From IMG/VR virus record IMGVR_UViG_3300027762_000008, positions 6,792 through 70,791 of that record: a stretch of DNA of 64,000 nt, one strand, 5' to 3'. Made by a program: the position numbers and the translations under genes. Shown here in pieces: positions 4,683 to 52,202 of the stretch (the first letter of the stretch is position 1; each line of letters begins with the position of its first letter). Origin of the DNA: a virus. The notes beneath the pieces are model-generated. The model made no database searches and had not been told where the DNA came from. It was given only the letters and a program-made list of their open reading frames with translations.

Positions 4683-5360
4683 TTAATTAGACAACAGAGA
4701 CAAAAGCCAATCAAACAGTGGACGTAACCATTTGTCGTATTCATTAGGACCAATGAACTTGTCCAGTGTCTTATCCAGAAATCCTACCAGAAAACCAATC
4801 GAAAAGCTAAGGAACGGAATGAGCAGCTTTGGAATCTTTGGAAGTTTCATTTTGGGTTTTGCCGGTTCAGTCGGCGGAGCCTCAGGCTCAATACTAGGTT
4901 TTGATGGCTGTTTTGGAGTCTCCGGTTCTCCTGTGGGAAGGTCCGGAACCACCCCAGAACGCCGCTCAATCAGGAACGATTCCCTGAGTCGCCACAGGGA
5001 CAGAGTCTTATCGAATTTGACCAGGTCTTCCTGGGAAAATCCTTTAAGTTCGGCCATATCCGTAATGGAATTCCACACGGTAGCCGCTTCCTGAATCTGA
5101 GCCTGAATATCCGGGTTGGTACATCCCGTGCGGAATACGTCAGGAGAGACTTCCGAGAACCACTTGGTGGTAACGACCGCCAGAATGAAAAGTTTTATCC
5201 AGTCCACCCCGAGAGACAGACACGCCCTTTGGCAGTCGTCCGCCAGATTGGGGTGGTTCCGGTTGTATTGCGCCAACCAGAGGTTGAGATCAGAGGGAAG
5301 GATCACCTTGTGGGAGCTTTCATGGGTCAGTCGAACCATACAGAACCTCCGGTTAATCAC
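4683..5360 (-). CDS. protein with Pro-rich linker and C-terminal membrane anchor
   Basis: Globular N-terminus, PETPKQPSKPSIEPEAPPTEPAKP linker, hydrophobic LLIPFLSFSIGFLVGFL segment. Confidence 0.65.
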   Translation of the reverse strand: MINRRFCMVRLTHESSHKVILPSDLNLWLAQYNRNHPNLADDCQRACLSLGVDWIKLFILAVVTTKWFSEVSPDVFRTGCTNPDIQAQIQEAATVWNSITDMAELKGFSQEDLVKFDKTLSLWRLRESFLIERRSGVVPDLPTGEPETPKQPSKPSIEPEAPPTEPAKPKMKLPKIPKLLIPFLSFSIGFLVGFLDKTLDKFIGPNEYDKWLRPLFDWLLSLLSN

Positions 5361-6513
5361 TCCAAATAGGAGTATCGAACTTGATGGTGGCCGTAACTCT
5401 TCCTGCTGATGGGGCGATGTTAAGTCGCAGATACCTACATTTCCCGCTATAACTCCATATAAACTGGGACACGGCGGCGATGTTTTGGCTCGAGCCTCCG
5501 TAGGTGGACGTCACTGGCATCCAGGCAGTTCCATCCAAGGACTCCTCGATATTTGCTGTTCCTGCTGCAGCGGTGGCAGCGAGAGTATGTGTTCCTTCTC
5601 CTGCGGCCGAGGTGATGTCATCCTGAGTTCCCGTGGAGGCATCGGCAAGGGAGAGAGCCAACTTGATTGTGTTGGGATCGACCACGATAATCCAGTGGTT
5701 TCCTGCGACCAGTCCTCCTGGGAGAGTTCCTGCCGTGGACAGAGTGACCTGCAGCCCCGTGAAATACGAGTGCGTGGATATGGAAAGCGTATCTGCGGTC
5801 GAGTTGGTTCTGAAGTCGGTGAAGTTCTGCACCGCCACGGTGGGAGGGGTCAGCGTATGGGTTCCAGATCCGTCGGCAGTGAGATCTCTCGCAGTGCCAG
5901 CTACCGCATTGGCGAGCGAGGAAGCCAGTTTAATGGTATCCGGGTCGACAACAATCACCCAAGAGTCTCCTGCAGGAAGTCCTCCAGGAAGAGTTCCGTC
6001 CGTGGATACCGACACCAGCTGTCCGTCCCGATACCCATGAAGATTGATGTTGATTTCCTCATTGGCGGCATTGATGTTTGCGTCGGTAAACGTCTTCGCC
6101 GTGGCAGTAACAGGAGTTAGCGTGTGAATATCGTCCAGAAGATTGATAGCCGTACCTGCGAGAGCATTGGCAAGAGAGGAAGCCAATTGGAATGTGTTGT
6201 CCGTAAGGTAAATGAGCCAGTAGTCAGTCAAGGCAGCGAGGGGTTTGGGCAGAGTTCCCGTGGTGGTCACTCTCACCTTGTCTCCAGTAAGTCCTCCGTG
6301 AGCCACAATGGAGATCACGTTGGATCCAGAGTTAATGTCTGCCGAGGTAATAGCGATATTAGCGGCTACGCCAGTTGTCCAAGTACCTCCAATGGCGCAC
6401 CCGTTGAGAGCCTCATACCCGGAGCCATTAACACTTTTGAGATCGATGGTGTCGGCCAATCCACTTGCCGAGACTTCAGCATTGTGAATCGTGACGGGTC
6501 CAATCATGGCCAT
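5353..6513 (-). CDS. virion-associated protein with three tandem beta-repeat domains
   Basis: Three copies of IxxH(G/S)xxxGxxVxxxTxGTLP...W(L/V/I)I...xxLAxSLAxAxxGT; AAGGAG RBS. Confidence 0.75.
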   Translation of the reverse strand: MAMIGPVTIHNAEVSASGLADTIDLKSVNGSGYEALNGCAIGGTWTTGVAANIAITSADINSGSNVISIVAHGGLTGDKVRVTTTGTLPKPLAALTDYWLIYLTDNTFQLASSLANALAGTAINLLDDIHTLTPVTATAKTFTDANINAANEEININLHGYRDGQLVSVSTDGTLPGGLPAGDSWVIVVDPDTIKLASSLANAVAGTARDLTADGSGTHTLTPPTVAVQNFTDFRTNSTADTLSISTHSYFTGLQVTLSTAGTLPGGLVAGNHWIIVVDPNTIKLALSLADASTGTQDDITSAAGEGTHTLAATAAAGTANIEESLDGTAWMPVTSTYGGSSQNIAAVSQFIWSYSGKCRYLRLNIAPSAGRVTATIKFDTPIWSD

Positions 6514-6558: not shown

Positions 6559-7335
6559 CTATCCCAAAACATCCGCTATAAGTTTGGCACCGGCTTGCAT
6601 AGCCTTTTCAATTCTTGCTTTTATAGGTCCGTCCGAAGTCTCATCGTCCATGAACTCGAGCTCCGAAAGGATGCAGATGGGACATCCGGAATTCTCGGCT
6701 CCGTTGAGAACGCCAAGCCCTGCGGCCATGACTCCCTTGGGGTACCCAGGGCTACCGGAGAAGACGGGGTTCCCGATGGCTTCGGCCATCTTGATTGCCC
6801 ACTTGGAGGCAAATTCTGCCGAGGCAATTTTGGAGTACTTCTTGTGTACCATGGCACAGGTGTAGTGCTCTCTCCCGTCGCAAGCGTTGAGATGCAGGGA
6901 GATGAACATGTCATATCCCCGAGCCCGGCTTCCAATCTCATAAAGGTCGTCTTCCTGGGGATCGTAAATATCGCAGGTGTGGCCGAGAACCTCCAGATAC
7001 ATCTTCAGGCACTGGGCTTGGTACATGTTGAGGACTTCTTCCCGGACGAGGGAGGACTTCCCAGTGGCTCCAGGGAGCCGTTTTGAGTGTCCTGGATCGA
7101 GCAGGATTCGTTTCTTCCCGATGGTCGCTGCCGGAGCCACAATCTTGGGAATCGGCTTGGCCACGGGAGCGACCTTCCAGGTCTTAGCCGTGGTCTTCAC
7201 TTCCTGCAGTTTGGCGATGAGTTCGTCTACGCTTGGAGACACCAGAACCCACAGGGGCTCCGCTGCGTTGTATCCGATTACGACGCCTTCGCCTCGTTCG
7301 GATTGATTGAATTCTAGCCACGAGGTAGGCTTCAT
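6559..7335 (-). CDS. N-acetylmuramoyl-L-alanine amidase (Amidase_3), endolysin
   Basis: Zn-binding and catalytic motifs ILLDPGH, EEVLN, FISLHLNA, ILSELEFMD. Confidence 0.9.
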   Translation of the reverse strand: MKPTSWLEFNQSERGEGVVIGYNAAEPLWVLVSPSVDELIAKLQEVKTTAKTWKVAPVAKPIPKIVAPAATIGKKRILLDPGHSKRLPGATGKSSLVREEVLNMYQAQCLKMYLEVLGHTCDIYDPQEDDLYEIGSRARGYDMFISLHLNACDGREHYTCAMVHKKYSKIASAEFASKWAIKMAEAIGNPVFSGSPGYPKGVMAAGLGVLNGAENSGCPICILSELEFMDDETSDGPIKARIEKAMQAGAKLIADVLG

Positions 7336-7680: not shown

Positions 7681-8211
7681 TTAAAGGTTAAGTAACTCTT
7701 GCGCCTTCGGGACTAAGGCGATCACTTTCTCTGCGTAACCCTTAACCGGACACCAGTTCTTCCCGATGTGCCGAAGGAATCCTTCAGTGTCGTTCGTATA
7801 CTTCTCCCATCCAGCATAATACGGACGGGTCAAGAATACCCGCCATCCTTTTACTGCCGAATCTACGTCATAAAATTGAGCGAAAACAGCTTTTCCTTCG
7901 ACTTCGGACGTGACAGGAACCTCTTTCGGAGTGGCGATTCCGTCGAGCTCTGAGCGATACTTCATGCCCCAGAAATTGAGACAGGTCTTGGCGACGAGGC
8001 TCTCGCCCCATCCGCTCTCGAGAGCTGCCTGGGCGAGACAGGCAATCTTCATGGAGCGGGACATGGAACTTCGCTGCAGAGCGGCAATGAGCTGCTCCCA
8101 GGGAGGCATCGTGATGGGAGTCGTAGAGATTTCCGCGAAGGAATCGGGAGCGAAGGTTATCAAGGCTTTGAGAATGAGTTCAGCTTTGTCACTGGTGGAC
8201 CGTATTTGCAT
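7681..8211 (-). CDS. GH73 glucosaminidase/muramidase (FlgJ-like)
   Basis: LAQAALESGWGES...LNFWGMK...FAQF motif; start set to MQIRST (ATG 8211, AAGGAG RBS). Confidence 0.88.
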   Translation of the reverse strand: MQIRSTSDKAELILKALITFAPDSFAEISTTPITMPPWEQLIAALQRSSMSRSMKIACLAQAALESGWGESLVAKTCLNFWGMKYRSELDGIATPKEVPVTSEVEGKAVFAQFYDVDSAVKGWRVFLTRPYYAGWEKYTNDTEGFLRHIGKNWCPVKGYAEKVIALVPKAQELLNL

Positions 8212-8271
8212 GGAGTTCTCCTTTGGGGTTACTCTCAAAGTATATCCGATTTCGTGCTCGCTTCCAACCGG

Positions 8272-9574: not shown

Positions 9575-12500
9575 TTATGCTGGATTAGAAACTGAATCAA
9601 CTGTTCCGCCGATAATGCAGACGCGGATAGACTTTGTGCTACCATATTTGTTTTTGATTGTGAAGTCATTCGAGGTCGCACTTTTATATACGGCATACGT
9701 ACTTCCCGTGTCGGTTATTTCGAAAATAGAGGAAGGGTCAGCAATCTCAACAACGGTCGCTGAAATATAACTCAGGAAAAACGTACCTGAGTTACCGCTA
9801 TTGTCTGTTATCACAACCATGTAGCCTGTGGAGCCGCCGTTCATTGTTACTGTGATGGCTTGACCAGTCGTGAGCGTTGTCGCCGTATTACTTGTGTTCA
9901 TGCCGACGGAAGCGACGTGTGCAGAAGCTCCAGCAGAAGAAGCTCCAACTATGCGGGTAGCGTTTGCCGCAGGCCCAAGTGTCCATGCGCCTGCATTTGA
10001 TATACCTCCTAGATTAGTAAAAGCAGAGTCATTCGCTGACGAATAAAAGGTTAATATGGTTCCGGATGGCTGTATTGCCCAAACGTTATTAGTAGCGTCT
10101 ATTGTTCCGCTATTAATCCACTTTAACATCGGATAAGAGCCAGCCCCATCATTTCTTAATAACTTAACAAGTGATCCATTTACTGTATGTGTCAAAGCTC
10201 CACTGCTACTAGGTCCAAGCGTCCACGCACCTGCATTTGACATGGAGCCAAGATTGTTAGTAATGAGTCCCTTTTTTAAGTCTGCCGTAGAAGAGGAACC
10301 AAATACTAAACCGTCGAAGCCAGCAGTAGCTCCCGTGCCGATTGCAACATAATTAGTTCCATAACACGCAGCAGCCAGAGAAATTCTTCCTTTGGTAGCA
10401 GTTCCTCCAATAGTTCCGTAAACCGATTGAAAGAGAAACGGTGTTCTTGTCGTGTCTTCATTCACTGAAGCATCGGTGGGCATGGTGTAGTCGGCATTGG
10501 TTTGCTTGTTGGCAATGGCAAATACGCCGTTACTTGTGTGTGTGGCGGTAGCTGTGGTGCCGCTCGCTCCAAGCGTCCATGCTCCTACTGCTGAAACTTT
10601 GCCCACTTCATCTGCGTCAGCATCCACACCATCATTATCTTGATTTGCATAAAAATAGATAACAGCAGTAGCATCATTTGCGTTCGCCTGACATTCGATT
10701 GCTCCACCGGTATATGTAGCTTCTGCGCGACCATCTCTCGACCCGGACGTTACTCTACAGTTTGAGTAAATTCCCGTTGTGGAGTTTGGAACCAGCGTTG
10801 ACACTGGGGTTGATGCCAACATGTTGAAGCCGGTTCCGTTAGCTGGCCCCAGCGTCCATGCGCCTGCATTTGACACTAAACCTAATGCCTGTGTATAGGA
10901 AGATAGAGCCGCTGGTGTTCCAGAAGCGTCTCCATTTGTGGCCCTAAACTCAAAAGAGTTCTGAGCAGCTAATGTTCCCATGAACAGGGCCGTCGCACGG
11001 ACGTTTGTTCCTGTTGTGTACGCCACGTAGCTATTAGCAGACTGCGATGCTGAATAAAGATTCTGTCCTATTACTAGACCTGTTCCGGAATACTGCGAGG
11101 ATATGGTGGCGGCATAGGAGGAATTTCCAATTCTCATATGATTTACGCCACTAGACGAACTTCCGGTAAGGGTCAGAACGGTTGGAAGGTCTACTCCACC
11201 GGGCCCAAGCGTCCATGCGCCTGCGGATGAATATTTGCCTATATCAGTAGAACCGGCGTAGAAGGTAAGTTGCTTTGCAGCTCCGATGTATGATAAAGAG
11301 CTTATCCAGTTTTCTGACCCGTCTGCCTTGCTTCCTATTCTTACGATACCACCATTACCTGCTGTTGCGTTTTCAGCATCAAACGAGACAATAAAGTCTC
11401 CAAATGCACTTCCTTGTTCACCGCGAAGAATATGCCCGACAGTGCTTACCCCGCTCGGCCCAAGCGTCCATGCGCCTGCCGTTGTAGAATAGGCATGGAC
11501 ATTCGTTCCATCTGCAGATAACTGTAATTGAGCGGTGCTTGTAATATGCCCAATGGAAAACTTTGCTGTATCCGCGAAAAGGTCTACACGAGCGCCGCCG
11601 CCTGCAGAGCCCGTGATACTAATTCTGGATGCTGCTCCGGTTGCGCCGAAAGCGCCAGATAAGCCAGTGCCGCTAGCTGCTACCGTTGCGTCTTTGAGCA
11701 GAACACCATCAACCGTCACGCCAGCCGCAGAGGTGTACTCACTGATGGTGTCCGCCGCGACGCTAACCGCGAACTTTTCAGCCAAAGCATGATATTGCCC
11801 CGCTACGGCAATTCTGCGGGTGTTCCCAGCTTCTGCTGTGTTCAGCACCGTGGTTCCGTTGCGTGTGTAGGCTCCTCCTGCAGCAAGGTATCGATACCAA
11901 GTATCGGTTGAGAAAACGTAACTGATCGTGGCGTCTTTCCCGCTCGCCGCTTCTGCTGCAGTCACGTCTGTAAATCGATTTGCCGCTACCTGATCCCAAT
12001 TGGCCGCATCGGTGGCCCACGCAGCCGATGCCGTGTGCGCGGTGTTCGCTCTCCATATGCCGCTATTGAAGAGAACCACATTCCCAATCCGATACGTGCG
12101 CCCGGTAGTCCATGCTTGCAGTGAGTCGTAATCGTCCAGGCGGTCGAGAGCGAGCTGTACACTCGTTTCTGTTGCGCTAAGCTCTCCGTTGAAGTTTGAA
12201 GTATCTGTGGTGACCGTTCCAGCGGAGGAGCTTGAACCACTCGCGAAGTTTACACCGGATACTTGCTTGGCTGGAGTTACTGTAGTTATCGTTCCAGTAG
12301 TGAGAGAATTTCCAGCTCCACCTTGCATTGTGATGAAACCAAGATTGATTACTTCCAAACCTCCGCTGGCGACTGTCGGAAAAGACGCAACTGTGTTGGC
12401 TATGATCTGGTTGGCCGCAGCCGATGGACCATTGTGCTCTACGCTATCTGGAACAAGAATATATTGCGCTATCTGATCCCCAGCCGAATCACTTAGGTTG

Positions 12501-14155
12501 TTACTGGCATAGACCCCGACTCGCATGTTGACGTATTTGCCGTTGGTAATTCCAACAAAAGAAGTTCCACTTTGCCTACCGCTAGGTATTGTGGTACTTC
12601 CGGAATTATAGAAGGTGGCCCCACTAGCTCCCGTGTACAAAACTTTAATGGAAATTGGGTCTACACCACTATCGGCAACCGTAGTATTCAATCCATGATC
12701 AAAATAGGTGGAAGCTCCCACCATTTTTACGGTTCGACTACCTGCCACCAAAACCGTTAAAACGGCATTCGAATCGTTCTTAAGTGTAGATCCTTTGGCA
12801 TTATGTTCATATGACGACACATCTGCCGGGAACGACACGGGATGCGTTTGTTTACTTACCGCATAATTGGTGCCGTCGGAATATATGGAAAATAGTAAAA
12901 TCTTATCACTAAAAGATGGATCGGTTGTCTGCTGGATTAGTCCATCATCGTCAATGTAAATGAAATACGCCGTAAAGTCAGCAGGAAGGGTCACAGTCTG
13001 GGGCACTGCCCACGATACTGGAGAGGAGCGGACAAGACCGATTCCCGCTCGTAATACTGTGAACTCTCTTGTTCCAGCGTTGTAGGAATAATAGGCTCCT
13101 GTTCCAGACCATTGGACAAAACCAGACTGAGATAGATCGTATGGAGTCACAACGCAAAGACCAGATCCGGTCTTTCCGTAGTTTCCCTCCATGCTCATAA
13201 GCCAATCTTTTTGAGTGTCCGTTGCGCCCACGATAGATGCGTAAATGTTGGCAAAACCTGTGATCCTCATCGAACAACTGCTTGTGGTAAACGTTCCAGA
13301 GTTTCCACTTGTGTCGAGACACGTGCCATTAGCGGTACCGCCGCTGACTCCCTGCAAAACAAAACTACAATTCGATATAAGTCGCGGATAAACAGATGCA
13401 GATAGGATGCAAAAACCTTCTACTGTTCCAGAGAAGGCAGCCTTGGTGTTTATCACTGTGAGGTTATTTGCGTAGAAGTTCAGGCTTGCATCTGCTGAGT
13501 TCTCATAGCACTTAAGAAAGCCTGAAGCTGATGCCGCTTGCAATAGTATGGTACTATTGGTGAAGAAAATTCCCTGTTGTGTTGAAGTTCCACTCGTGGC
13601 GAGAGCATTGATAGCTTTAGTTGATCCGTCAAAGGTACTGGTTACAACCACATAGCATGCAAAAAAGCTACTTCCATAAGGGCTAGTTGTCTGTGCGAGC
13701 GATACTGCGTTAAAGGCATAATCTCCGGCTGTAGTAACGTTCACAAAGTAGTCGTTTGCGAGAATTGAGCCTGTGGCGTTCAGTGCGCTCTGTCCATCTG
13801 CTGTAATGGTGTACGAATGGTTAATACGATTGAGCAGAACCCACTCTAATCCGGTTGTGGTTGACGTGATCGTTCCCACAATCGTAGGAGCTGCCGGCCC
13901 ATTGCCTTTCCCTACTAGAGCCACGTAAGGTTTTAGCGTGATATTCTCCACATACGTCCCTGAATAAATCTCAATGACGTATGGTTTATTGATGGCGGCA
14001 TCTGTAACGGCATTAATCGCGGATTGAATGGAGGTATACTGTGCGCCTCCGGCTGCACATACGGTTACTGTTTGTGCCTTGTCCATTGGAAAGCGATCAA
14101 TGTAGCCAGTACTAGCGTTATAGACGTAACGGGAGGGGGATGGTGCGATAGTCAT
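9575..14155 (-). CDS. tail fibre/tailspike with N-terminal pectin-lyase-like beta-helix, CBM5/12-like module and GAWTLG-delimited modules
   Basis: 1526 aa, G/S/T/A-rich. YTSIQSAINA...IEIYSGTYVENI (beta-helix cap); AWTTGRTYRIGNVVLFNSGIWRA (CBM-like); six GAWTLG repeats. Confidence 0.85.
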   Translation of the reverse strand: MTIAPSPSRYVYNASTGYIDRFPMDKAQTVTVCAAGGAQYTSIQSAINAVTDAAINKPYVIEIYSGTYVENITLKPYVALVGKGNGPAAPTIVGTITSTTTGLEWVLLNRINHSYTITADGQSALNATGSILANDYFVNVTTAGDYAFNAVSLAQTTSPYGSSFFACYVVVTSTFDGSTKAINALATSGTSTQQGIFFTNSTILLQAASASGFLKCYENSADASLNFYANNLTVINTKAAFSGTVEGFCILSASVYPRLISNCSFVLQGVSGGTANGTCLDTSGNSGTFTTSSCSMRITGFANIYASIVGATDTQKDWLMSMEGNYGKTGSGLCVVTPYDLSQSGFVQWSGTGAYYSYNAGTREFTVLRAGIGLVRSSPVSWAVPQTVTLPADFTAYFIYIDDDGLIQQTTDPSFSDKILLFSIYSDGTNYAVSKQTHPVSFPADVSSYEHNAKGSTLKNDSNAVLTVLVAGSRTVKMVGASTYFDHGLNTTVADSGVDPISIKVLYTGASGATFYNSGSTTIPSGRQSGTSFVGITNGKYVNMRVGVYASNNLSDSAGDQIAQYILVPDSVEHNGPSAAANQIIANTVASFPTVASGGLEVINLGFITMQGGAGNSLTTGTITTVTPAKQVSGVNFASGSSSSAGTVTTDTSNFNGELSATETSVQLALDRLDDYDSLQAWTTGRTYRIGNVVLFNSGIWRANTAHTASAAWATDAANWDQVAANRFTDVTAAEAASGKDATISYVFSTDTWYRYLAAGGAYTRNGTTVLNTAEAGNTRRIAVAGQYHALAEKFAVSVAADTISEYTSAAGVTVDGVLLKDATVAASGTGLSGAFGATGAASRISITGSAGGGARVDLFADTAKFSIGHITSTAQLQLSADGTNVHAYSTTAGAWTLGPSGVSTVGHILRGEQGSAFGDFIVSFDAENATAGNGGIVRIGSKADGSENWISSLSYIGAAKQLTFYAGSTDIGKYSSAGAWTLGPGGVDLPTVLTLTGSSSSGVNHMRIGNSSYAATISSQYSGTGLVIGQNLYSASQSANSYVAYTTGTNVRATALFMGTLAAQNSFEFRATNGDASGTPAALSSYTQALGLVSNAGAWTLGPANGTGFNMLASTPVSTLVPNSTTGIYSNCRVTSGSRDGRAEATYTGGAIECQANANDATAVIYFYANQDNDGVDADADEVGKVSAVGAWTLGASGTTATATHTSNGVFAIANKQTNADYTMPTDASVNEDTTRTPFLFQSVYGTIGGTATKGRISLAAACYGTNYVAIGTGATAGFDGLVFGSSSTADLKKGLITNNLGSMSNAGAWTLGPSSSGALTHTVNGSLVKLLRNDGAGSYPMLKWINSGTIDATNNVWAIQPSGTILTFYSSANDSAFTNLGGISNAGAWTLGPAANATRIVGASSAGASAHVASVGMNTSNTATTLTTGQAITVTMNGGSTGYMVVITDNSGNSGTFFLSYISATVVEIADPSSIFEITDTGSTYAVYKSATSNDFTIKNKYGSTKSIRVCIIGGTVDSVSNPA
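9972..11485 (-). repeat. six ~29-bp in-frame direct repeats within the tail fibre gene
   Basis: Plus-strand consensus GGCCCAAGCGTCCATGCGCCTGC(ATTTGA) starting at 9972, 10212, 10566, 10845, 11202 and 11457. Confidence 0.9.
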
Positions 14156-16478: not shown

Positions 16479-18020
16479 GTGGACGACGAAAAGCTAAGGT
16501 TAATACAAGAGTATCAAGAAGAAGTAATCAGACAACGAGGTCGACTGCTCAAGGTTTTTATCCCAGATAAACCTTCTGCAGAGCCGTTTCCAGAACAAAT
16601 AGCCTTCCTCAGCGACAAGTCGAATTCTAAGCTGGCTCGCTGCGGAAACCGTGCAGCCAAGACTTTTACCACCATGCGAGACTTGGCATGGAAGATCACC
16701 CGTACTCACTGGTATAGACAAGACTGGAACGTCCTTAAGATTTCAGACAAGGCATGGAAAGACAAACTGGAAACGCCTGAGTATGAGAAGAAGTATCTCA
16801 AGGCAAAGCCAAGAACGTTCTGGGTGGTTGGTCCTACATACGAGTTCGTTAAAGAAACCATGTGGGGAATGTATCTGGAGCAGATGATTCCCGCATGGTT
16901 TATTAAGGAAATCAAACTCACCAACCAAAAGAATATCGAAGCCGTACACTTTATCAACGGCGATGTACTCAAATGTAAAACCTATGCCCAGCAGGATTCC
17001 ACCAAGATGGGTTTCGCTGTGGACGAGGTTTACATCGACGAAGCTCCTCCGGAAAAGAAGACAATTACCGAACTCATAGTTCGTACTTTCGACAAGGATG
17101 GTTCCATCACCCTGGGCTTTACCCCCATTGTGCAGAACAAGGAGATCCAGGCGTACCTGGACAGCTGCTGTTCAGATGGCACCATGTCCCTGCACTCCTG
17201 GAGCGTCTTGGCGAACCCGCACTACCGGGATCACCCGGAACGCCGGGAGAGGGTGCTTGCCGAATACTCCCACATGTCCGAGGAGGAGCGGAACACCCGT
17301 CTTTCCGGAGCATGGTACATTGAGAGGCCGAACCAGCCAGTCTTCGAAGGGCTCGAGCCAGAGATAGTGGACGACTTCCCTGTCCCCGACCATTGGCGGC
17401 AGATTCGCTATACCGACCCGGCATCCCATGTGACAGGGCATGCCATCTTCGCTGAAGACCCCGCCACTGGGGAATGGTACACTATCCATGCTCAAGAGAT
17501 TACCTGGGGCAAGATAGCCAAAGCTGAGGACATCCTCGACGTAATCGAAGCCCTGAAGCCCACCCGGTACTTTAAGTACTACGACAGCGTCTACGACAAC
17601 GCAGAAGCTTGGTTCGGTGCCTACGGTAGACAATATGGGTATCGTCCCTGTATCGTAAAGAACAGAGAAGCGGCCATCATGCAGACCCGCAACGCAGTGG
17701 GAACCAAGAGACTGAAGTTCTTCCGTCGGGCAGCTGCAGGAGCGGTGGAGCAGTTCAAGGAGTACCACTACAAGCCCGATGGACAGGGAGTGGTAAAGAA
17801 GAAGGATCACATGTTGGATTGCGTCATGTATTTCTGTCGGGAAATCCCTGATCCTCTTCCTACGGCAGAGAATCAACCGACGGTGAAAGAGGAAGCTGTC
17901 CAGAATCTGATACGCAAGTATGAGGCAGGACCGATGTCTACCCGTAAGCAATGGGCATTCAATCGGGCGGCAAGAAATTCACGGTTTCAGCAGATTGGTA
18001 GACTTAGGAGCATGAGATGA
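16479..18020 (+). CDS. terL: terminase large subunit
   Basis: PFPEQ Q-motif, Walker A GNRAAKT, Walker B VYIDEAP, LGFTP coupling motif, nuclease motifs YTDPA and KDHMLDCVMY. Confidence 0.92.
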   Translation: MDDEKLRLIQEYQEEVIRQRGRLLKVFIPDKPSAEPFPEQIAFLSDKSNSKLARCGNRAAKTFTTMRDLAWKITRTHWYRQDWNVLKISDKAWKDKLETPEYEKKYLKAKPRTFWVVGPTYEFVKETMWGMYLEQMIPAWFIKEIKLTNQKNIEAVHFINGDVLKCKTYAQQDSTKMGFAVDEVYIDEAPPEKKTITELIVRTFDKDGSITLGFTPIVQNKEIQAYLDSCCSDGTMSLHSWSVLANPHYRDHPERRERVLAEYSHMSEEERNTRLSGAWYIERPNQPVFEGLEPEIVDDFPVPDHWRQIRYTDPASHVTGHAIFAEDPATGEWYTIHAQEITWGKIAKAEDILDVIEALKPTRYFKYYDSVYDNAEAWFGAYGRQYGYRPCIVKNREAAIMQTRNAVGTKRLKFFRRAAAGAVEQFKEYHYKPDGQGVVKKKDHMLDCVMYFCREIPDPLPTAENQPTVKEEAVQNLIRKYEAGPMSTRKQWAFNRAARNSRFQQIGRLRSMR

Positions 18021-18283: not shown

Positions 18284-20311
18284 ATGCCAAAAGTTCGACT
18301 TCTATCCGATGCCGAGTTGTCCCGGCTTATCGCTGCTCAGTACCAGGAAGCGAAAGAGAAAGCGGATAAACTCAAGGTGGAATACGACATCTGCGAGATG
18401 GCGTATCAGTGCATCAACAACAAAATTCGTGGCGCTTTGGACTCTGGTCTGGCGACTCAGTTTCTGTTCTCTCCACAAAACGAAGAGAACGTCATGCCGC
18501 TTATCGAAGGACTGGACTTGGCTAAGGCCATCCTGTTCCTTCACAGCAAACTGTGTATCTCCGACCCCGTGGTGACCGCTGCTCCCCGTAAGCAGGATCA
18601 TGCCACCAAGATGTCGGCAAAATATGCCCAGCAGCACATGGAATACCTCAAGAACAAGACTCGGATGCAGGAAATCTCCGAAGCCGGAGCATTCCTGAAC
18701 CTCTGTATCTACGGCACCGGAATCACTTTCTGGGGCTGGAATCCCCATGGCGGCGAGAAGCCCATGGACGATATTCCGGATAACGTGGACATCGAGAACT
18801 TTGACTTCCGTATGGAAGGAGCTCACGACGTACGAAACGTCAATCCAAAGAAGTTCTTTCCCGATGCTACGGCGGACATGTGGATCAATGCCGAACATTG
18901 CTTTGAAGAGATGGACGTCCCGGCAAAGAAGGCTTACTACGACTTCGATAAACCCGAGCAGCAAGAGATTCTGCGAGCGTCACAGAACGAAGTAAACAAC
19001 TCCGAAAGTTCAGGCAATAAAGAGAAGAGCACTATTAAGCTCATCCACTACTGGGAGAAAGGACTTCCTTGGAACGGCTTCCTGGGCTCCCATGTTATCT
19101 TTATCCGGCCTGAGAATCCTCGCATTCTGTATCGGGGTCCGAATCCTTTTGCCCACAAGAAGCTCCCGTACAGTGTGCTCACAGACATCGACATCCCAGA
19201 CAACGTGATGGGAATGAGCCGCATTGTGTACGCATACCAGACCCAGATGAGCATCAACAACATGCTCACCATGGTCATGGACAACATGAGCCTCTTCGGA
19301 GCGGCGAAGGCGATGCTTCCAGAGGGTGGATTCAATGAGGACATGATCGACAACGATAAGTCGCTCATTGGAACGTACAACCCGGCTTCGGGAGGAAAAC
19401 CTGAGTTCTTCCGTCCAGTGAATGTGACCTCCGATGTGTGGCGAGCCTATGACATCATGAAGGGATACATCAATAACCTGTATGGTATGAATGAGTTCTC
19501 CCAGGGCCAGATTCCTCGAGAGCTTTCGTCCTATGCGGTTCAGTTGGCCTTGGAGATGGACGACAAGTACCGTATCCGCCTCTTCAATAAGAAGAAGCAG
19601 TACGTGAAGGACATGTACACCTTCGGTCTTGAGATGACCAAACAGTACGTTACTGAACCCATTCGGCTCAGCATTACGGGAGTTGAAGGATTCGAGAACG
19701 ACGAATTCTTCATGTCGTCCCAGCTCGAGGGCGAATACGATATTTCCGTGGATTACGGAGCCTACATCCCGGTGGATCCGGCTGCTCGTAAACAGCAGAT
19801 TCTGGAGTTCATCAAGTCTGGCATGTTCGAGAAGGCTGGCGGCAATATGAAGAAAGCCGCCTCGCTTCTGGTTGATGGTTCGATGTTGGACGTTAAGGAT
19901 TCGATGGAAACGTCTAGAAACCTGCAGAACGCCGAAATCGCCAGACTCATCAAGGGCGAGAAGGTGAATGTGGAGCCATGGGATGACGATGGGGAACACG
20001 CCGCAGCCATTGAAGACTTTGCAAGAACCCAGACCTTCGAAACCCTTCCAAGGGACATCAAGGAAGCAATCTGGGCTCATGGAGAAGCCCACATTAAGAC
20101 TCTCGCCGAGAAGATTGCCAAATCCGGCGGACAGCCGGGGGCTCCAGGAGGTCCGATGGGAGCGGGTGGTCCTGGTGGGATGCCTCCTCCTGGCGGTCCA
20201 GCTGGCGGTCCAGGGATGCCGCCGATGGGAGGAGCGGGAGCACCTCCTGCGCCGCCTCCAGGAGCAGGTCCGGGGATGCCCATGGCCTCCCCCTCGCAGC
20301 CACTGGTTTGA
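18284..20311 (+). CDS. portal protein
   Basis: 675 aa, just downstream of terL. IYGTGI, VRNVNPKKFFPD, NPFAHKKLPY and QMSINNML segments fit podovirus (P22-like) portals; Gly/Pro-rich tail. Confidence 0.88.
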   Translation: MPKVRLLSDAELSRLIAAQYQEAKEKADKLKVEYDICEMAYQCINNKIRGALDSGLATQFLFSPQNEENVMPLIEGLDLAKAILFLHSKLCISDPVVTAAPRKQDHATKMSAKYAQQHMEYLKNKTRMQEISEAGAFLNLCIYGTGITFWGWNPHGGEKPMDDIPDNVDIENFDFRMEGAHDVRNVNPKKFFPDATADMWINAEHCFEEMDVPAKKAYYDFDKPEQQEILRASQNEVNNSESSGNKEKSTIKLIHYWEKGLPWNGFLGSHVIFIRPENPRILYRGPNPFAHKKLPYSVLTDIDIPDNVMGMSRIVYAYQTQMSINNMLTMVMDNMSLFGAAKAMLPEGGFNEDMIDNDKSLIGTYNPASGGKPEFFRPVNVTSDVWRAYDIMKGYINNLYGMNEFSQGQIPRELSSYAVQLALEMDDKYRIRLFNKKKQYVKDMYTFGLEMTKQYVTEPIRLSITGVEGFENDEFFMSSQLEGEYDISVDYGAYIPVDPAARKQQILEFIKSGMFEKAGGNMKKAASLLVDGSMLDVKDSMETSRNLQNAEIARLIKGEKVNVEPWDDDGEHAAAIEDFARTQTFETLPRDIKEAIWAHGEAHIKTLAEKIAKSGGQPGAPGGPMGAGGPGGMPPPGGPAGGPGMPPMGGAGAPPAPPPGAGPGMPMASPSQPLV

Positions 20312-49625: not shown

Positions 49626-50060
49626 TCAACCCCGCACAACGTTCGTTCTTCGTTCCATGGTGAGTCTGTCGTACTGCCCGTCGGTATTCGTGTGGAGAGA
49701 AATATCTCCAAACTTCACTGTCCACTGTGCTATGGAATCTTTCGCCACCTTTCGGCAGCGGGTGTCATCCCAGTTGGGAGGAAACCAGAAGTTGAATATC
49801 CAGCCCGGATACGTCTTGCGAACCAGGAAATGGGCATCCGGATCCTCGTCTATTCTCTCAATCCGGATCTCTTCCCCGGTTCTGGCCACCACAAGTTTAC
49901 ACCCGAGAACCTCTGGCTCCGGCTCGTCCATCTCGAATTCCTCGACGTCATACCCACTCAGACCGGAGACATATAGCTCCGCTTTCACCTTGTCAGAGAA
50001 GCAGCGGACGATATGATAATCGGAGTAGTACCCGGCGGTGACCACATATACCTTAGCCAT
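49626..50060 (-). CDS. conserved phage hypothetical protein
   Basis: Start MAKVYVVTAGYYSDYHIVRCFSDKVKAE, a common small phage domain. Confidence 0.65.
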   Translation of the reverse strand: MAKVYVVTAGYYSDYHIVRCFSDKVKAELYVSGLSGYDVEEFEMDEPEPEVLGCKLVVARTGEEIRIERIDEDPDAHFLVRKTYPGWIFNFWFPPNWDDTRCRKVAKDSIAQWTVKFGDISLHTNTDGQYDRLTMERRTNVVRG

Positions 50061-50805
50061 TTTGCTTCGCCTTAATCGCAGCGTCCCACAGTCCGAGATC
50101 CTTCGCCTTGAACGAGCTCGCCACCAACAGAAGAGTTCCAGCACACGGGTTACCGTTGATCATAATGATTTGGGTGCCGTGAATCTTGGCAACAATAGCC
50201 TTCGCAAACTCGATTGCCTTGGTGGACGTCTTCCACGAGGGCTCAACCTCATCCAGAACCCTTTGCACCAGGAGAGCGTGTTCCCTGTTGGCCTTGTCGT
50301 AATAAACTACCATCTCCTCAACCTTGGCCTCGACCACGGGAGCAGGTTCTGCAGCAACCGGGGCCGGTGCCACTTCTACTGCTCCCGCAGGAGCCTCTTC
50401 CACGGCAGGAGCTGGAGGAGCGACCTTCGCCGGGCGTCCACGCTTCTTGGTGGTTTCCACTTCCGTGTTGGGAACAGATGAAGGAGCAGGGGAATCACCA
50501 GCGTCAACCGATGACCTCGTGAGAGAAACGACAGTCTCCACAACATGCGGGACTGACGAGTTACCCCCAAGGAACTGCTCCTTCGCCGCCCTCTTCTTCT
50601 CTTCTACCCATGCCTCAATGACCGCAGCAGACGGCTTGTTGTTAGGGTCGAATTGAAGAAAGAACTCAAAATCTTCTGTGTAGTACTCTTCGATGTCAAC
50701 GTCCTTATTTCGTTGACCCTTCGTCAGGTGAAGTCCCAGGCGCACCATGCTGAAATAAATGTCAGTGCCAAATCTCTCTACCTTAGTTTCCATAATTCTG
50801 GCCAT
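50053..50805 (-). CDS. hypothetical protein with AT-hook-like motif and Ala/Pro linker
   Basis: KKRGRPAK, APAPVAAEPAP linker; position next to the nuclease/SSB/PolA cluster. Confidence 0.7.
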   Translation of the reverse strand: MARIMETKVERFGTDIYFSMVRLGLHLTKGQRNKDVDIEEYYTEDFEFFLQFDPNNKPSAAVIEAWVEEKKRAAKEQFLGGNSSVPHVVETVVSLTRSSVDAGDSPAPSSVPNTEVETTKKRGRPAKVAPPAPAVEEAPAGAVEVAPAPVAAEPAPVVEAKVEEMVVYYDKANREHALLVQRVLDEVEPSWKTSTKAIEFAKAIVAKIHGTQIIMINGNPCAGTLLLVASSFKAKDLGLWDAAIKAKQNG

Positions 50806-50806
50806 G

Positions 50807-51712
50807 TTATTTGTTCTCCATTAAAAGGTCTACAGGGGCTTTTGTTCTGTCGTTAATGTTGCTCAGGGTGAACACTTTCACTGAATCCCTGCACTCAGTA
50901 AAGGTCTTCCCGTGGCACCTGCTCCAATACTCGCAGGGGCGATTGTAGTCAATGCACGACTGGCGGTTGCAGATAGCTGTCTCGGACGAGAGAGAATCCA
51001 TCTCCACCTTCGCTTGCATCAGATCCTCAAACGCCTCGGTGTAATCCAATTCTCCGGCGTTCACCTCAACGTCATACATCTCAGGCGCAGCCCGAAGACT
51101 GTATGCGTCGAAGGATTCTCCCGTCTTCGGCACATGCTTCGGCTTCGTCACCACCCGGTATCTCACCCCGGCAAATTTTGCCGTGTCGAGCCCGTACTTA
51201 AGAGCCACCTGCCCTGCAAAATTTGCATACAGGTTGAGCTGTGGGTCACGGTGCAGCCGGGCGAAGAGGCTCTGAACCAGCATCCCAGAAGTCTTAAGGT
51301 CGCAAATCCACCAGAAGCCGTTGGAGTCCACCAAGATGGCGTCGATATATCCGACGATGTCATCGTTGGAGACTTCCATTTCGAGCCCGATGCACTTGAG
51401 CCGGGATACCAAGTGAAGCTTGTAGTAACTCATCAAACAAGCATAGACCTTAAACACGTCCTCCAATTCAAGATTCTGCTCTTTACAGGCAGTATTGAAT
51501 ATGTCCATCGTGAACAAAGACTTCTCATGCTTTGTGAGCTCGCAGACCTTATGGAACGCCGAACCGAACCGCAGCGCAACCGCGTCGTCGGTATAGTCCG
51601 GGTCTTTCGGTACATGCAGCTTGTACTTCAGGTATGCCTTCCTGCGGCACTTCCTGAGCATGGACATAGCCGAATACGAAATCTTCTTATCAATCTCTTG
51701 CAATATCTCCAT
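50807..51712 (-). CDS. PD-(D/E)XK (RecB/Cas4-like) exonuclease with predicted Fe-S staple
   Basis: ISYSAM...CRRK, FGSAFH, GYIDAI, ICDLKT, QLNLYA, and C-terminal CIDYNRPCEYWSRC. Confidence 0.88.
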   Translation of the reverse strand: MEILQEIDKKISYSAMSMLRKCRRKAYLKYKLHVPKDPDYTDDAVALRFGSAFHKVCELTKHEKSLFTMDIFNTACKEQNLELEDVFKVYACLMSYYKLHLVSRLKCIGLEMEVSNDDIVGYIDAILVDSNGFWWICDLKTSGMLVQSLFARLHRDPQLNLYANFAGQVALKYGLDTAKFAGVRYRVVTKPKHVPKTGESFDAYSLRAAPEMYDVEVNAGELDYTEAFEDLMQAKVEMDSLSSETAICNRQSCIDYNRPCEYWSRCHGKTFTECRDSVKVFTLSNINDRTKAPVDLLMENK

Positions 51713-51723
51713 CGGGAGACTCC

Positions 51724-52113
51724 TTACAGCAGAGGATTATCTTCGCCCATTTCCGGTGGAGTCGAAATGGTTTCAAGCTGGGGACGGGAGCCACGGCCAG
51801 CTCGAGAAGGATCTCTCTCGATCTTGAACTGGTTGGATTCCTTCCCTGCCATCGGTCCCTTGGTGAGAGTGATGCGCCCGGCGAATGTGATGCGAACGAA
51901 GTCTTCCTTGTTGACGGAGTGGGACAAAGCATAGTCCAATTGACCGGCCTTGTTCAGAACGGTAGTCCTGCCATTCTCGTCGATAAAATAGTGCTGTGGG
52001 CCGAACTTTCCCGGCTTGGTTTCAATGTACCAGCCCTCGACCAGAATCTCCCCATCTTTACACTCTTTGTACTTGGGGTAATTAAACTTTCCGCCTACTT
52101 CCTGAAAACTCAT
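51724..52113 (-). CDS. putative single-stranded DNA-binding protein (OB fold)
   Basis: Start MSFQEV (GGAGG RBS); beta-rich OB-like pattern with acidic/Pro tail EDNPLL; position between the PolA and nuclease genes. Confidence 0.6.
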   Translation of the reverse strand: MSFQEVGGKFNYPKYKECKDGEILVEGWYIETKPGKFGPQHYFIDENGRTTVLNKAGQLDYALSHSVNKEDFVRITFAGRITLTKGPMAGKESNQFKIERDPSRAGRGSRPQLETISTPPEMGEDNPLL

Positions 52114-52202
52114 AAACCCTCCAGAAACTGATTGCGTTGTGGGAACTATACCCAAAGACGCTCGTTGTTACTGTCGAAGCCGACTATCGGCTCGACTCAA
52201 AA

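Follow-up and report, generated by a model that had tools for sequence, protein, structure and literature searches.

The window analysed here is a 64,000-nt stretch of the 70.8-kb (70,791-base) record of an uncultured phage, which is 97% complete. A single open frame without internal stop, located on the minus strand at positions 9575..14155 of the window, codes for a protein of 1526 aa consisting of a tailspike-like N-terminal part, a modular fibre, and a tip. Lysis genes lie on one side of the fibre gene and terminase/portal genes on the other. The gene is the sole match within the phage record, and megablast and tblastn searches of GenBank phages with it gave no match. No PHROG family was found for the protein, and a PHROG match is lacking in all nine large structural-side ORFs of this phage. 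At E <= 1, CBM_5_12 was the only Pfam match of the protein, below its cut-off, while neither Phage_fiber_2 nor another curated Pfam tail-fibre repeat was recognized in the repeat region. A Peptidase_S74 (PF13884) C-terminus is absent from the protein (designated as P0001 in the comparisons below). GAWTLG is mentioned in none of the papers searched. With no Pfam model, PHROG model, solved structure, or mention in the searched literature, this fibre family is undescribed.

About residues 30-300 (13256..14068) are predicted to form a right-handed beta-helix-like domain. In the AlphaFold2 model, pLDDT is mostly 80-95 over aa 30-280, and the structure is all beta. Acinetobacter phage tailspike 6e1r (E 6.5e-6), the tail fibres of phage 7-7-1 (9rkv, E 1.5e-4), and pectin methylesterases were matched to this domain in Foldseek. 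At fold level, the model places the N-terminal part among tailspike-type beta-helices. A CBM5/12-like stretch was recognized at aa 681-717 (12005..12115; PF02839, 23.5 bits with a cut-off of 26.2), and the whole protein compared with the PDB gave only weak CBM5/12-like sequence matches, covering aa 669-719. ESM Atlas scores of at most 0.89, including 0.84-0.85 to T4 fibre clusters, are leads only.

The repeat search identified one repeat family in the fibre gene, with six copies of (S)(N)AGAWTLGP, all direct and in frame, at start-to-start spacings of 240, 354, 279, 357, and 255 nt in window order, just as the first-pass annotation had described them, direct orientation included. In gene order, these spacings correspond to 85, 119, 93, 118, and 80 aa, and the G of GAWTLG is at aa 894, 979, 1098, 1191, 1309, and 1389. 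When the 23-mer GCAGGCGCATGGACGCTTGGGCC was searched for at no more than three mismatches, five matches were found (0, 0, 1, 1, and 3 mismatches), every one inside the fibre gene, and 100 dinucleotide shuffles gave none. Copy 1 (11457..11479), with the AGAWTLGP core at aa 893-900, and copy 2 (11202..11224) are identical to the 23-mer. Copy 3 (10845..10867) and copy 6 (9972..9994) have one mismatch each, and copy 5 (10212..10234) has three. The most diverged is copy 4 (10566..10588; VGAWTLGA, aa 1190-1197), with 4 of 23 bases different. The same DNA word had been claimed for most of the copies; this is right for the two exact copies and the two one base off, but with three and four mismatches in the other two, "most identical" was somewhat generous. 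Beyond the six copies, no frame of the window contains the motif peptide. A Chi-like or genome-wide site was rejected because the word occurs in the window only inside the fibre gene. An internal start or overlapping frame was rejected too, because the out-of-frame ATG made by the word is missing from the GCT-type word of another lineage. In genome contigs, the DNA core had 106 single matches, none of them a family member according to its flanks (unrelated high-GC proteins or chance); these matches thus reveal no prophage and give no clue to the host.

Five modules are separated by the motif copies. Module 1 (11225..11456) is of a type also present in P0003/L067 according to module clustering, and the type of module 2 (10868..11201) is also in P0009 (library comparison and module clustering). 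Module 3 (10589..10844) has relatives in P0015, P0022, and P0027 in the library comparison. For module 4 (10235..10565), the strict block screen and module clustering revealed close relatives in P0155/P0007 and more distant ones in P0011, P0002, P0004, and P0060. Module 5 (9995..10211) is a diverged look-alike of the tip core. The C-terminal tip itself (9578..9971) includes a predicted beta-sandwich at aa 1424-1526 (9578-9886; pLDDT about 95), and most of the 155 library matches cover the tip alone. Its fold matches are weak (best E 1.9e-3) and are to tailspike and tail-fibre C-termini and galectins. Little mutual similarity of the modules had been noted from the sequence, and this was borne out: after trimming of the motif, all 10 pairs of the five inter-motif modules had Smith-Waterman z <= 1.0 against 300 shuffles. 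The sole exception among the 15 pairs including the tip is module 5 with the tip, with z 5.8 reached by 0/300 shuffles. The repeat search revealed neither a second copy of any module nor a long internal duplicate in the gene.

Modules modelled as a monomer fold poorly (pLDDT 45-60); in the trimer model, their folding improves (77-79). The trimer modelling proposed in the first-pass annotation was run, and the model placed the motif in the inter-chain interface: the predicted interface includes motifs 5 and 6 and about 30 residues after the motif. The trimer model scored 0.90 versus 0.00 for the best of three controls. It was computed with its own alignment and three copies, unlike the calibration, where 20 of 30 proteins with a structure as a pair and 1 of 23 with a structure as a single chain came up to the score mark; memorization of similar fibres by the predictor may also contribute to such a score. 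At least 70% of contacts recur between the trimer runs, and partner pLDDT is at least 76. A profile of 51 junction windows found no solved structure in the PDB, only a 9-residue match at E 0.35. Since the motif is in the predicted trimer interface, it would be structural as well, and "structural" and "recombination joint" are not alternatives. A purely structural motif would go further than this: AGAWTLGP would only pack the trimer, illegitimate recombination would take place anywhere, selection would keep the products joined at the seam, and silent-site uniformity would be unrelated. The predicted interface and the better folding of the modules in the trimer model agree with such an explanation, and selection for folded recombinants alone would also put surviving breakpoints at domain seams.

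The motif was present in 27 of 153 retrieved proteins, which come from freshwater sediment, soil, and wetland metagenomes, and there are 1 to 8 copies of it per family protein. At the DNA level, family ORFs were gathered with a codon-neutral DNA pattern, and the family size is to be read as an "at least" figure. Architectures vary among 45 family proteins in module clustering, and whole shaft modules of 60-140 aa are the variable units. Peptidase_S74 is an intramolecular chaperone typical of trimeric fibres. It was over the cut-off at the C-terminus of five of the eight motif-bearing relatives and is missing from P0001, so the family ends in either the chaperone or the beta-sandwich tip.

The order of modules is not invariant among relatives. 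As the first-pass annotation had anticipated, module number and order vary with breakpoints at the repeat, and this is seen in a common tip, a common module 4, indels, and a cassette swap. Breakpoint blocks were taken from a strict PAM30/low-X-drop protein screen. Over their last 139 aa, P0001 and P0154 are 96% identical, and this tract begins 1 aa ahead of the G of the motif, while upstream of motif 6 identity is visibly far lower, and it is 37% over the whole 748-column alignment. The tip that P0001 has in common with P0154 and P0006 begins at motif 6; no relative was confirmed when viral contigs were searched with P0006, and this breakpoint is thus known at the protein level. Module 4 of P0001 is 88-89% identical to P0155/P0007 from motif 4 to just past motif 5. 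The L067 ORF (the same as P0018) and P0003 are 98-100% identical except for an indel of two modules (208 aa), whose joint is in the motif. L022 and P0005 differ in a one-module indel, the module being missing from L022, and L057 and P0004 have exactly one module in common. At the nucleotide level, identity between L024 and L041 goes from 0.13-0.53 to 0.97-1.00 at AAGAWTLGPS, and L007 and L053 represent a single-module cassette swap, in which identity is 0.87-1.00 along one module bounded by a motif copy on either side. In all three seams checked, the DNA-level transitions are inside the core itself, which counts against a purely structural motif. These comparisons of natural relatives, rather than events caught in progress, suggest that recombination took place at the motif.

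Near the motif (-15 to +20 aa) were 16 of 18 internal block ends, after the ends had been hand-collapsed into "independent events" (null 0.29, P 2e-7). If three anchor ends are scored as misses, the tally is 16/21 (P 9e-6). Breakpoints restricted to the motif are contradicted by the N-terminal anchor blocks, which end at least 56 aa before the first motif, and by a 40-aa block common to L113 and P0004, which ends away from any motif; breakpoints away from the motif would be in line with a purely structural motif.

Contigs of another metagenome have likeness to the gene that stops at 9994 and starts at 11457, i.e., at the edges of motif copies 6 and 1. One foreign contig matches only two motif copies, with one difference each and 232 other letters between them, and two motif words as the only common sequence are not what a purely structural motif accounts for. 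The likeness of a foreign contig starts at 9735, inside the tip and away from the motif. Data sets X2 and X3 gave the same figures throughout and were treated as a single data set, and X4 contributed one short contig spanning motif 1. From runs with a small share, the matching pieces alone served as evidence, the habitat labels being left aside. The source run, X1, consists of contigs only; no repeat-to-repeat joint was found in them, and such contigs cannot show rare variants.

Silent sites of the motif are not free to vary in this gene. Invariant module order and freely varying silent sites had been named in the first-pass annotation as signs of a purely structural motif, and on both counts the opposite was found. 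Synonymous positions had been described as mostly identical, and the counts agree: among the six copies, identical codons are used in 54 of 95 same-residue pairs (57%) versus 27% expected from the codon usage of the gene, and 1 of 5000 simulations reached this value. Among the ORFs listed with at least three copies, six of eight have an observed identity of 57-89% versus 27-31% expected, reached by 0/3000 simulations. Codon uniformity here and in five other genes is 2-3 times that predicted from codon usage. Five of the six genes with the excess have a common N-terminal anchor and are hence not independent. L003, with six copies, has no codon excess (25% versus 29%, P 0.81) and thus keeps the peptide without the codons, which counts against the recombination-joint reading and for a purely structural motif.

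The excess is in columns A-1, G0, A+1, T+3, L+4, and G+5 (55 copies in the 22 ORFs listed). The core Thr is ACG in 47 of 53 copies versus 19% background, and in 20 of the 22 ORFs listed most codons for this Thr are ACG. The first Gly of the core is GGC in 41 of 55 copies, and the last Gly is GGG in 32 of 54 copies versus 14% background. The core consensus is GCA GGC GCN TGG ACG YTN GGG, 17-23 nt long. Control residues use codons at background frequencies; these are Gly at -6, Pro at +6, and, in the downstream H-x-[IVLF]-x-G, both His and Gly. A purely structural motif leaves this core-confined excess unexplained, as the neighbouring Gly, Pro, and His are equally conserved but have background codons; on the whole, it is a rather improbable explanation. 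Codon-pair context does not account for the excess: elsewhere, ACG makes up 37% of 63 Thr codons after Trp, and GGG 16% of Gly codons after Leu/Phe. The near-universal ACG is kept across lineages with different Leu codons (TTG, CTT, and CTG), a pattern that simple homogenization by crossovers does not obviously predict.

Alternatively, the locked codons could serve translation or mRNA, as a pause for the three-chain register or as local RNA structure, and the breakpoints would be a side effect of seam tolerance. The preferred ACG and GGG are rarer codons (about 20% of Thr and about 15% of Gly, respectively), ACG is maintained when the Leu codon differs between lineages, and the ACG use of Thr after Trp elsewhere is somewhat enriched, all of which fits a role in translation. 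On the other hand, GCA and GGC are also locked though they are not rare, codon usage in these phages is only weakly biased, and neither near-identical DNA words in otherwise unalignable genes nor crossovers inside the word are predicted. A role of this kind is very unlikely.

The first-pass annotation had found no invertase or reverse transcriptase in the window, and this holds for the whole record. Its 70,791 bases gave no match to reverse transcriptase (PF00078) or to serine or tyrosine recombinases (PF00239 and PF00589), with positive controls detected, and no invertase or integrase was found in the phage record. No single-strand annealing protein was recognized there either; RecT and ERF are missing, and a PD-(D/E)XK nuclease was all that the search revealed. 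These results bear on a programmed system, in which a dedicated phage or host enzyme, a nuclease or recombinase, would recognize the core, break or exchange DNA at the seams, and produce high-frequency fibre variation in one population. A specific word conserved across distant lineages beyond simple homogenization, as in the ACG codon, would fit such a system, and many genes of this phage, the large structural-side ORFs among them, are without a recognized family. Against it are the lack of the above recombination genes in a nearly complete record, the confinement of the word in the window to the fibre gene, and the source-run contigs without a joint, within what contigs can show. A programmed system is very unlikely. 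That the core is a specific recombinogenic site, recognized or broken by an enzyme or hyper-recombinogenic, and that the population continuously varies the number, order, and kind of modules is also highly doubtful; if true, an enzyme-targeted core would be a direct-repeat counterpart of a shufflon without a recombinase gene.

The best reading is probably that of a structural seam doubling as a short-homology recombination joint. The gene would encode a trimeric, putatively receptor-binding fibre of an uncultured, probably virulent phage, and in its C-terminal 630 aa, sequence-unrelated cassettes of 80-119 aa follow one another, every one of them beginning with the seam G-x-[VI]-[ST]-x-A-G-A-W-T-L-G-P. 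The seam and about 30 following residues would pack three chains together, and the residues would be conserved for this reason. The DNA of the core is nearly constant at silent sites, within the gene and between distant genes, and would therefore offer a brief identity tract that is structurally neutral in position and always in one reading frame. Crossover at the core could proceed by general or relaxed homologous recombination, or by slippage between direct repeats. Between copies within one gene, crossovers would delete or duplicate whole modules, and between fibre genes of co-infecting phages they would swap modules or tips. Junctions allowing in-frame gain, loss, or swapping of modules, as proposed from the sequence, are supported by the natural relatives and the silent-site pattern. 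Such junctions may be "built in", i.e., selected for evolvability, or may be a by-product of repeated crossovers. That DNA identity directs the crossovers may be inferred, and the same applies to the enzymes involved and to the exchange rate.

Shufflons and invertase switches use inverted repeats and a dedicated recombinase, and diversity-generating retroelements need a reverse transcriptase and a template repeat. The fibre resembles the former in alternative C-terminal parts of a host-recognition protein, and the latter in that receptor-binding proteins of phages are the target. It differs from shufflons in its direct copies and the lack of a PF00239 or PF00589 gene, and from diversity-generating retroelements in having no PF00078 match and no second module copy in the gene.

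Closer parallels exist in other phage adhesins. In the part of PMC3157838 used here, which cites Tetart et al. 1996 and 1998, recombination at conserved motifs is described for distal fibre/adhesin genes of T-even phages (glycine-rich motifs of gp38, and motifs of gp37). According to the same part, short conserved motifs of gp38, thought to be a structural core, alternate with hypervariable segments, the glycine-rich motifs follow one another in a strictly conserved order, and single deletions were not viable. To the extent of that source, the likeness is in short conserved motifs between variable segments, here in six copies with mutually dissimilar modules, and in natural chimeras with exchange points in or beside the motifs. 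There is no sequence relationship to gp36, gp37, or gp38, nor any Pfam or PHROG match of the repeat region. In gp38, as described there, loops vary, whereas here whole shaft modules of the lengths given above vary, together with the number of motif copies. Silent-site locking of the core is what was measured here in comparison with the T-even system. In tailspikes of E. coli phages, DNA stretches of 20-95 bp that are conserved above their surroundings flank exchangeable domains across phage genera, and the available part of PMC10408124 reads them as sites of homologous exchange and proposed recombination hotspots. Conserved DNA beside exchangeable domains is common to both systems. As far as that part goes, the tailspikes are of other phages and another protein family, with one anchor-to-RBD boundary per gene, while the fibre gene repeats a single word six times in frame, so that modules can also be gained and lost within the gene. 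Antireceptors of Streptococcus thermophilus phages have collagen-like repeats separating domains (Duplessis and Moineau 2001, as cited in PMC5601072). By that secondary account, they are similar in having repeats between distinct domains of a host-range protein with variable regions, but their repeats are of the low-complexity GXY type, and here there is a unique 8-residue word. The route of diversification had been claimed to be distinct from shufflons and diversity-generating retroelements, and in this it is distinct; it is not new in kind, as exchange at conserved adhesin motifs is published, judging from the parts of PMC3157838 and PMC10408124 used. By analogy, the fibre would work like the conserved-motif exchange of T-even adhesins and would be a new example of it in an undescribed fibre family.

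Phage host range is set largely by fibres, and how new fibre specificities are gained is a practical question for phage engineering and ecology. The eight-residue seam with its fixed DNA word marks points of in-frame removal, insertion, and exchange, with natural products of each kind documented, and it suggests a ready-made splice point for chimeric fibres in this fibre family.

A second kind of junction is located upstream of the repeat region. Over aa 1-460, P0157, P0158, and P0160 are 36-63% identical to the fibre protein; they carry the same TSVQLALDxLD stretch, and the C-termini after this stretch differ. According to these sequences, TSVQLALDRLDD (12131..12166) represents the junction at which N-terminal relatives switch to other C-termini. 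Between it and the first motif copy lies a stem segment, ISEYTSAAGVTVDGVLLKDA (11687..11746), which is common to the N-termini of the short relatives P0007, P0155, P0013, and P0088.

The long fibre gene occupies window 9575-14155 on the minus strand and codes for 1526 aa, in an IMG/VR virus record of 70,791 bases rated as 97% complete. Terminase large subunit (16479-18020) and P22/SU10-like portal (18284-20311) are its neighbour genes, and the lysis enzymes, an amidase and a glucosaminidase, are coded at 6559-7335 and 7681-8238, respectively. A second fibre-like ORF of 386 aa (5353-6513) matches tail-fibre and baseplate-wedge PHROGs and is without the motif (S)(N)AGAWTLGP; no motif copy was found in the window outside the fibre gene. 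The repeat search recovered one direct repeat family with six copies at spacings of 240, 354, 279, 357, and 255 nt, as the first-pass annotation had reported, and the G of GAWTLG is in gene order at aa 894, 979, 1098, 1191, 1309, and 1389. The 23-mer GCAGGCGCATGGACGCTTGGGCC has five matching places with 0, 0, 1, 1, and 3 mismatches and no match in 100 shuffles; the sixth copy, VGAWTLGA, differs from it by 4 bases. The five modules between successive copies, previously described as little alike, are indeed pairwise unrelated when trimmed of the motif (z ≤ 1.0 against 300 shuffles in all ten pairs). The sole related pair is module 5 (window 9995-10211) and the C-terminal tip (9578-9971), with a score of 58 and z of 5.8, reached by none of 300 shuffles. 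In this alignment, module 5 matches the beta-sandwich core of the tip, thus one "module" is a diverged tip copy.

The protein is read as combining a tailspike-like head with a modular trimeric fibre, in which the motif would be a structural seam, based on fold matches of the head, the trimer model, and Peptidase_S74 in relatives. A confident all-beta domain was predicted at aa 30-300, with a phage tailspike (6e1r, E 6.5e-6), phage tail fibres (9rkv, E 1.5e-4), and pectin methylesterases as the best fold matches. In the N-terminal part of the gene (window 12131-14155, aa 1-675), about 30 aa precede the beta-helix, tailspike-like domain, and no separate anchor is recognisable in them. Related proteins P0157, P0158, and P0160 align with aa 1-460 (36-63% identity) and continue to the TSVQLALDxLD stretch (aa 664-675 here), with other C-termini thereafter; this switch is a second, different junction in the fibre gene. 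Between head and fibre lies a CBM5/12-like carbohydrate-binding stretch (window 12005-12115; 23.5 bits, below the Pfam cut-off of 26.2), followed by a stem segment that short relatives have at their N-termini, then by the region with the six seams and by the tip. A beta-sandwich was modelled for the final 103 residues (pLDDT about 95), and the modules folded poorly as monomer (pLDDT 45-60). Modelling aa 1194-1526 as a trimer gave a score of 0.90 (best of three controls 0.00). In calibration, 20 of 30 proteins solved as pairs attained the score mark, as did 1 of 23 solved as single chains; the run used a custom alignment and three copies, unlike this calibration, and a fibre resembling solved ones may score because the model has learned those structures. 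The trimer runs agree in at least 70% of contacts with partner pLDDT of at least 76, and the confident interface takes in motif 5 (122-131 in the modelled fragment), motif 6 (202-211), and about 30 residues after each. Five of eight motif-bearing relatives end in Peptidase_S74, the intramolecular chaperone of trimeric fibres and spikes.

No Pfam model, PHROG model, or solved structure matched the fibre family, the motif peptide was found in no paper by literature text search, and no multi-copy locus of the motif word was present among 185,579 species genomes scanned. A full phmmer pass over 1.84 billion representatives gave 155 proteins at E ≤ 1e-3 (150 listed); most of the matches listed cover the tip only, and the motif is present in 27 of the 153 proteins retrieved. 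With a codon-neutral DNA pattern for AGAWT[LF]GP, five loci were found in IMG/VR (four family members and one chance match) and at least 118 in metagenomes (L numbers here). Family members were chosen by their flanks (G-x-[VI]-[ST]-x before the motif, H-x-[IV] after it) and G+C of 0.45-0.53; the remaining matches, failing the flank context, were set aside as high-GC proteins without relationship or as chance hits.

Module-type strings of 45 family proteins vary in number (1 to 8 seams) and in order, and natural chimeras and indels place the breakpoints at the motif, as the first-pass annotation had predicted. The studied protein (P0001) and its relatives P0154/P0006 share 96% identity in their final 139 aa, with the switch 1 aa before the G of motif 6; upstream there are scattered identities only, and identity over all 748 columns is 37%. 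Module 4 occurs in P0155/P0007 at 88-89% identity as a block that begins at motif 4 and stops just past motif 5, placed between the stem, which it directly adjoins, and a different C-terminus. The ORF of L067 (P0018) is 98-100% identical to P0003 except for a 208-aa stretch representing exactly two modules joined within the motif, L022 is without one 82-aa module of P0005, and exactly one module (91%) is common to L057 and P0004. Between P0002 and P0003, likeness is limited to the anchor and the final 120 aa (99%), the latter beginning 1 aa before the motif. At the nucleotide level, identity of L024 and L041 changes from 0.13-0.53 to 0.97-1.00 at AAGAWTLGPS, and L007 and L053 are alike in one module between two motif copies (0.87-1.00, with 0.33-0.63 outside).

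Alignment rows were collapsed by hand to 18 internal block ends in the repeat region, after dropping protein termini, repeat sightings of an event via near-identical proteins, and N-terminal anchor ends preceding the first motif. Sixteen of these were within -15 to +20 aa of a motif (null fraction 0.29, P 2e-7), and six of the ten left ends were within 3 aa (null 0.056, P 5e-6); with three anchor ends scored as misses, 16 of 21 are near a motif (P 9e-6). The misses are a 40-aa block common to L113 and P0004, and the likeness of a foreign contig that begins at window 9735, inside the tip beta-sandwich and away from the motifs. In that relative, the last 53 codons were exchanged separately. Contigs of another metagenome (X2) represent independent DNA evidence, with X3 the same in every figure. 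One X2 contig resembles the window over 9735-9994 (15 differences) and loses the likeness past 9994, the edge of motif 6. In a second contig, likeness covers 11457-11623 (2 differences), and the 63 letters ahead of 11457, where motif 1 has its edge, are unlike. A third matches two motif words only (1 difference each), with 232 other letters in between.

Synonymous positions of the motif are held rather than freely varying, which agrees with the earlier claim, and the excess is limited to core columns. In A-G-A-W-T-L-G-P of the fibre gene, 54 of 95 same-residue codon pairs are identical (57% vs 27% expected; 1 of 5000 simulations). Eight ORFs have at least three copies, including L131, a 72% G+C non-member; in six of the eight the observed identity (57-89% vs 27-31%) was reached by none of 3000 simulations, five of these six having a common N-terminal anchor and thus not being independent. 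L003 (5252-8008), a family gene with six seams, has no codon excess (25% vs 29% expected), which means that not every family gene keeps the DNA word locked. By column, the excess in 55 copies from 22 ORFs is confined to columns A-1 to G+5. ACG encodes 47 of 53 Thr (19% background) and holds the majority in 20 of the 22 ORFs (own gene and loci L002-L113). The first Gly is GGC in 41 of 55 copies, and the last one is GGG in 32 of 54 (14% background). The conserved Gly at -6 and Pro at +6 have codons near expectation, and the conserved His and Gly of the downstream H-x-[IVLF]-x-G have background codons. Neighbour context does not explain the excess: elsewhere, ACG makes up 37% of Thr codons that follow Trp (63 cases), GGG 16% of Gly codons that follow Leu or Phe, and GGC 20% of Gly codons in A-G-A. 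The core GCA GGC GCN TGG ACG is common to the fibre gene and genes just 26-31% identical in protein. ACG is kept even in lineages with a different adjacent Leu codon (TTG, CTT, CTG), and homogenisation by crossovers alone does not fully explain it, which leaves room for a translation or RNA constraint or a site-specific factor.

The proposal that motif copies are junctions for in-frame gain, loss, and swapping of modules is thus supported by both module order and number and the silent sites, and its mechanism can be sketched as follows. The seam would be kept as protein because it packs the trimer, as modelled, and its DNA core would supply 17-23 nt of identity, always in one frame, where the structure tolerates a joint. 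Homologous recombination of host or phage, or slippage between the direct repeats, could cross over at this core and thereby delete, duplicate, or swap modules in frame; relatives show natural examples of each outcome. Recurrent crossovers would in turn hold the word uniform. In this reading, identity and not selection would position the crossovers.

The gene has the defining features of neither shufflons nor DGRs. Its copies are direct, and reverse transcriptase, serine and tyrosine recombinases, RecT, and ERF were absent in the whole record, with positive controls detected each time; the absence of invertase and reverse transcriptase noted for the window therefore extends to the record, and the route is distinct from both systems. 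According to PMC10408124, conserved DNA motifs flank tailspike receptor-binding domains and are proposed as recombination hotspots; these resemble the seams, with no homology to the fibre gene. T-even adhesins (PMC3157838) work by the same logic, again with no homology. Collagen-like repeats between domains of Streptococcus thermophilus phage antireceptors (cited in PMC5601072) are a looser and likewise non-homologous parallel. The gene is a well-documented new case of an already known fibre-diversification route, with crossover at the seams as its putative mechanism.

The replication block encodes helicase, PD-(D/E)XK nuclease, family-A polymerase, and primase. The nuclease (lambda-exonuclease/Cas4-like, window 50807-51712) has no recognisable annealing partner, and the ORFs flanking it (50053-50805 and 51724-52155) belong to no family. 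All nine large plus-strand ORFs tested in window 20361-48394, including ones of 1875, 1191, and 2138 aa, had no PHROG match at E ≤ 0.001. Two seam-bearing ORFs were found on each of three phage contigs, L024 (518 and 638 aa), L002 (291 and 597 aa), and L007 (1116 and 406 aa), so exchange between fibre genes of one genome is possible.
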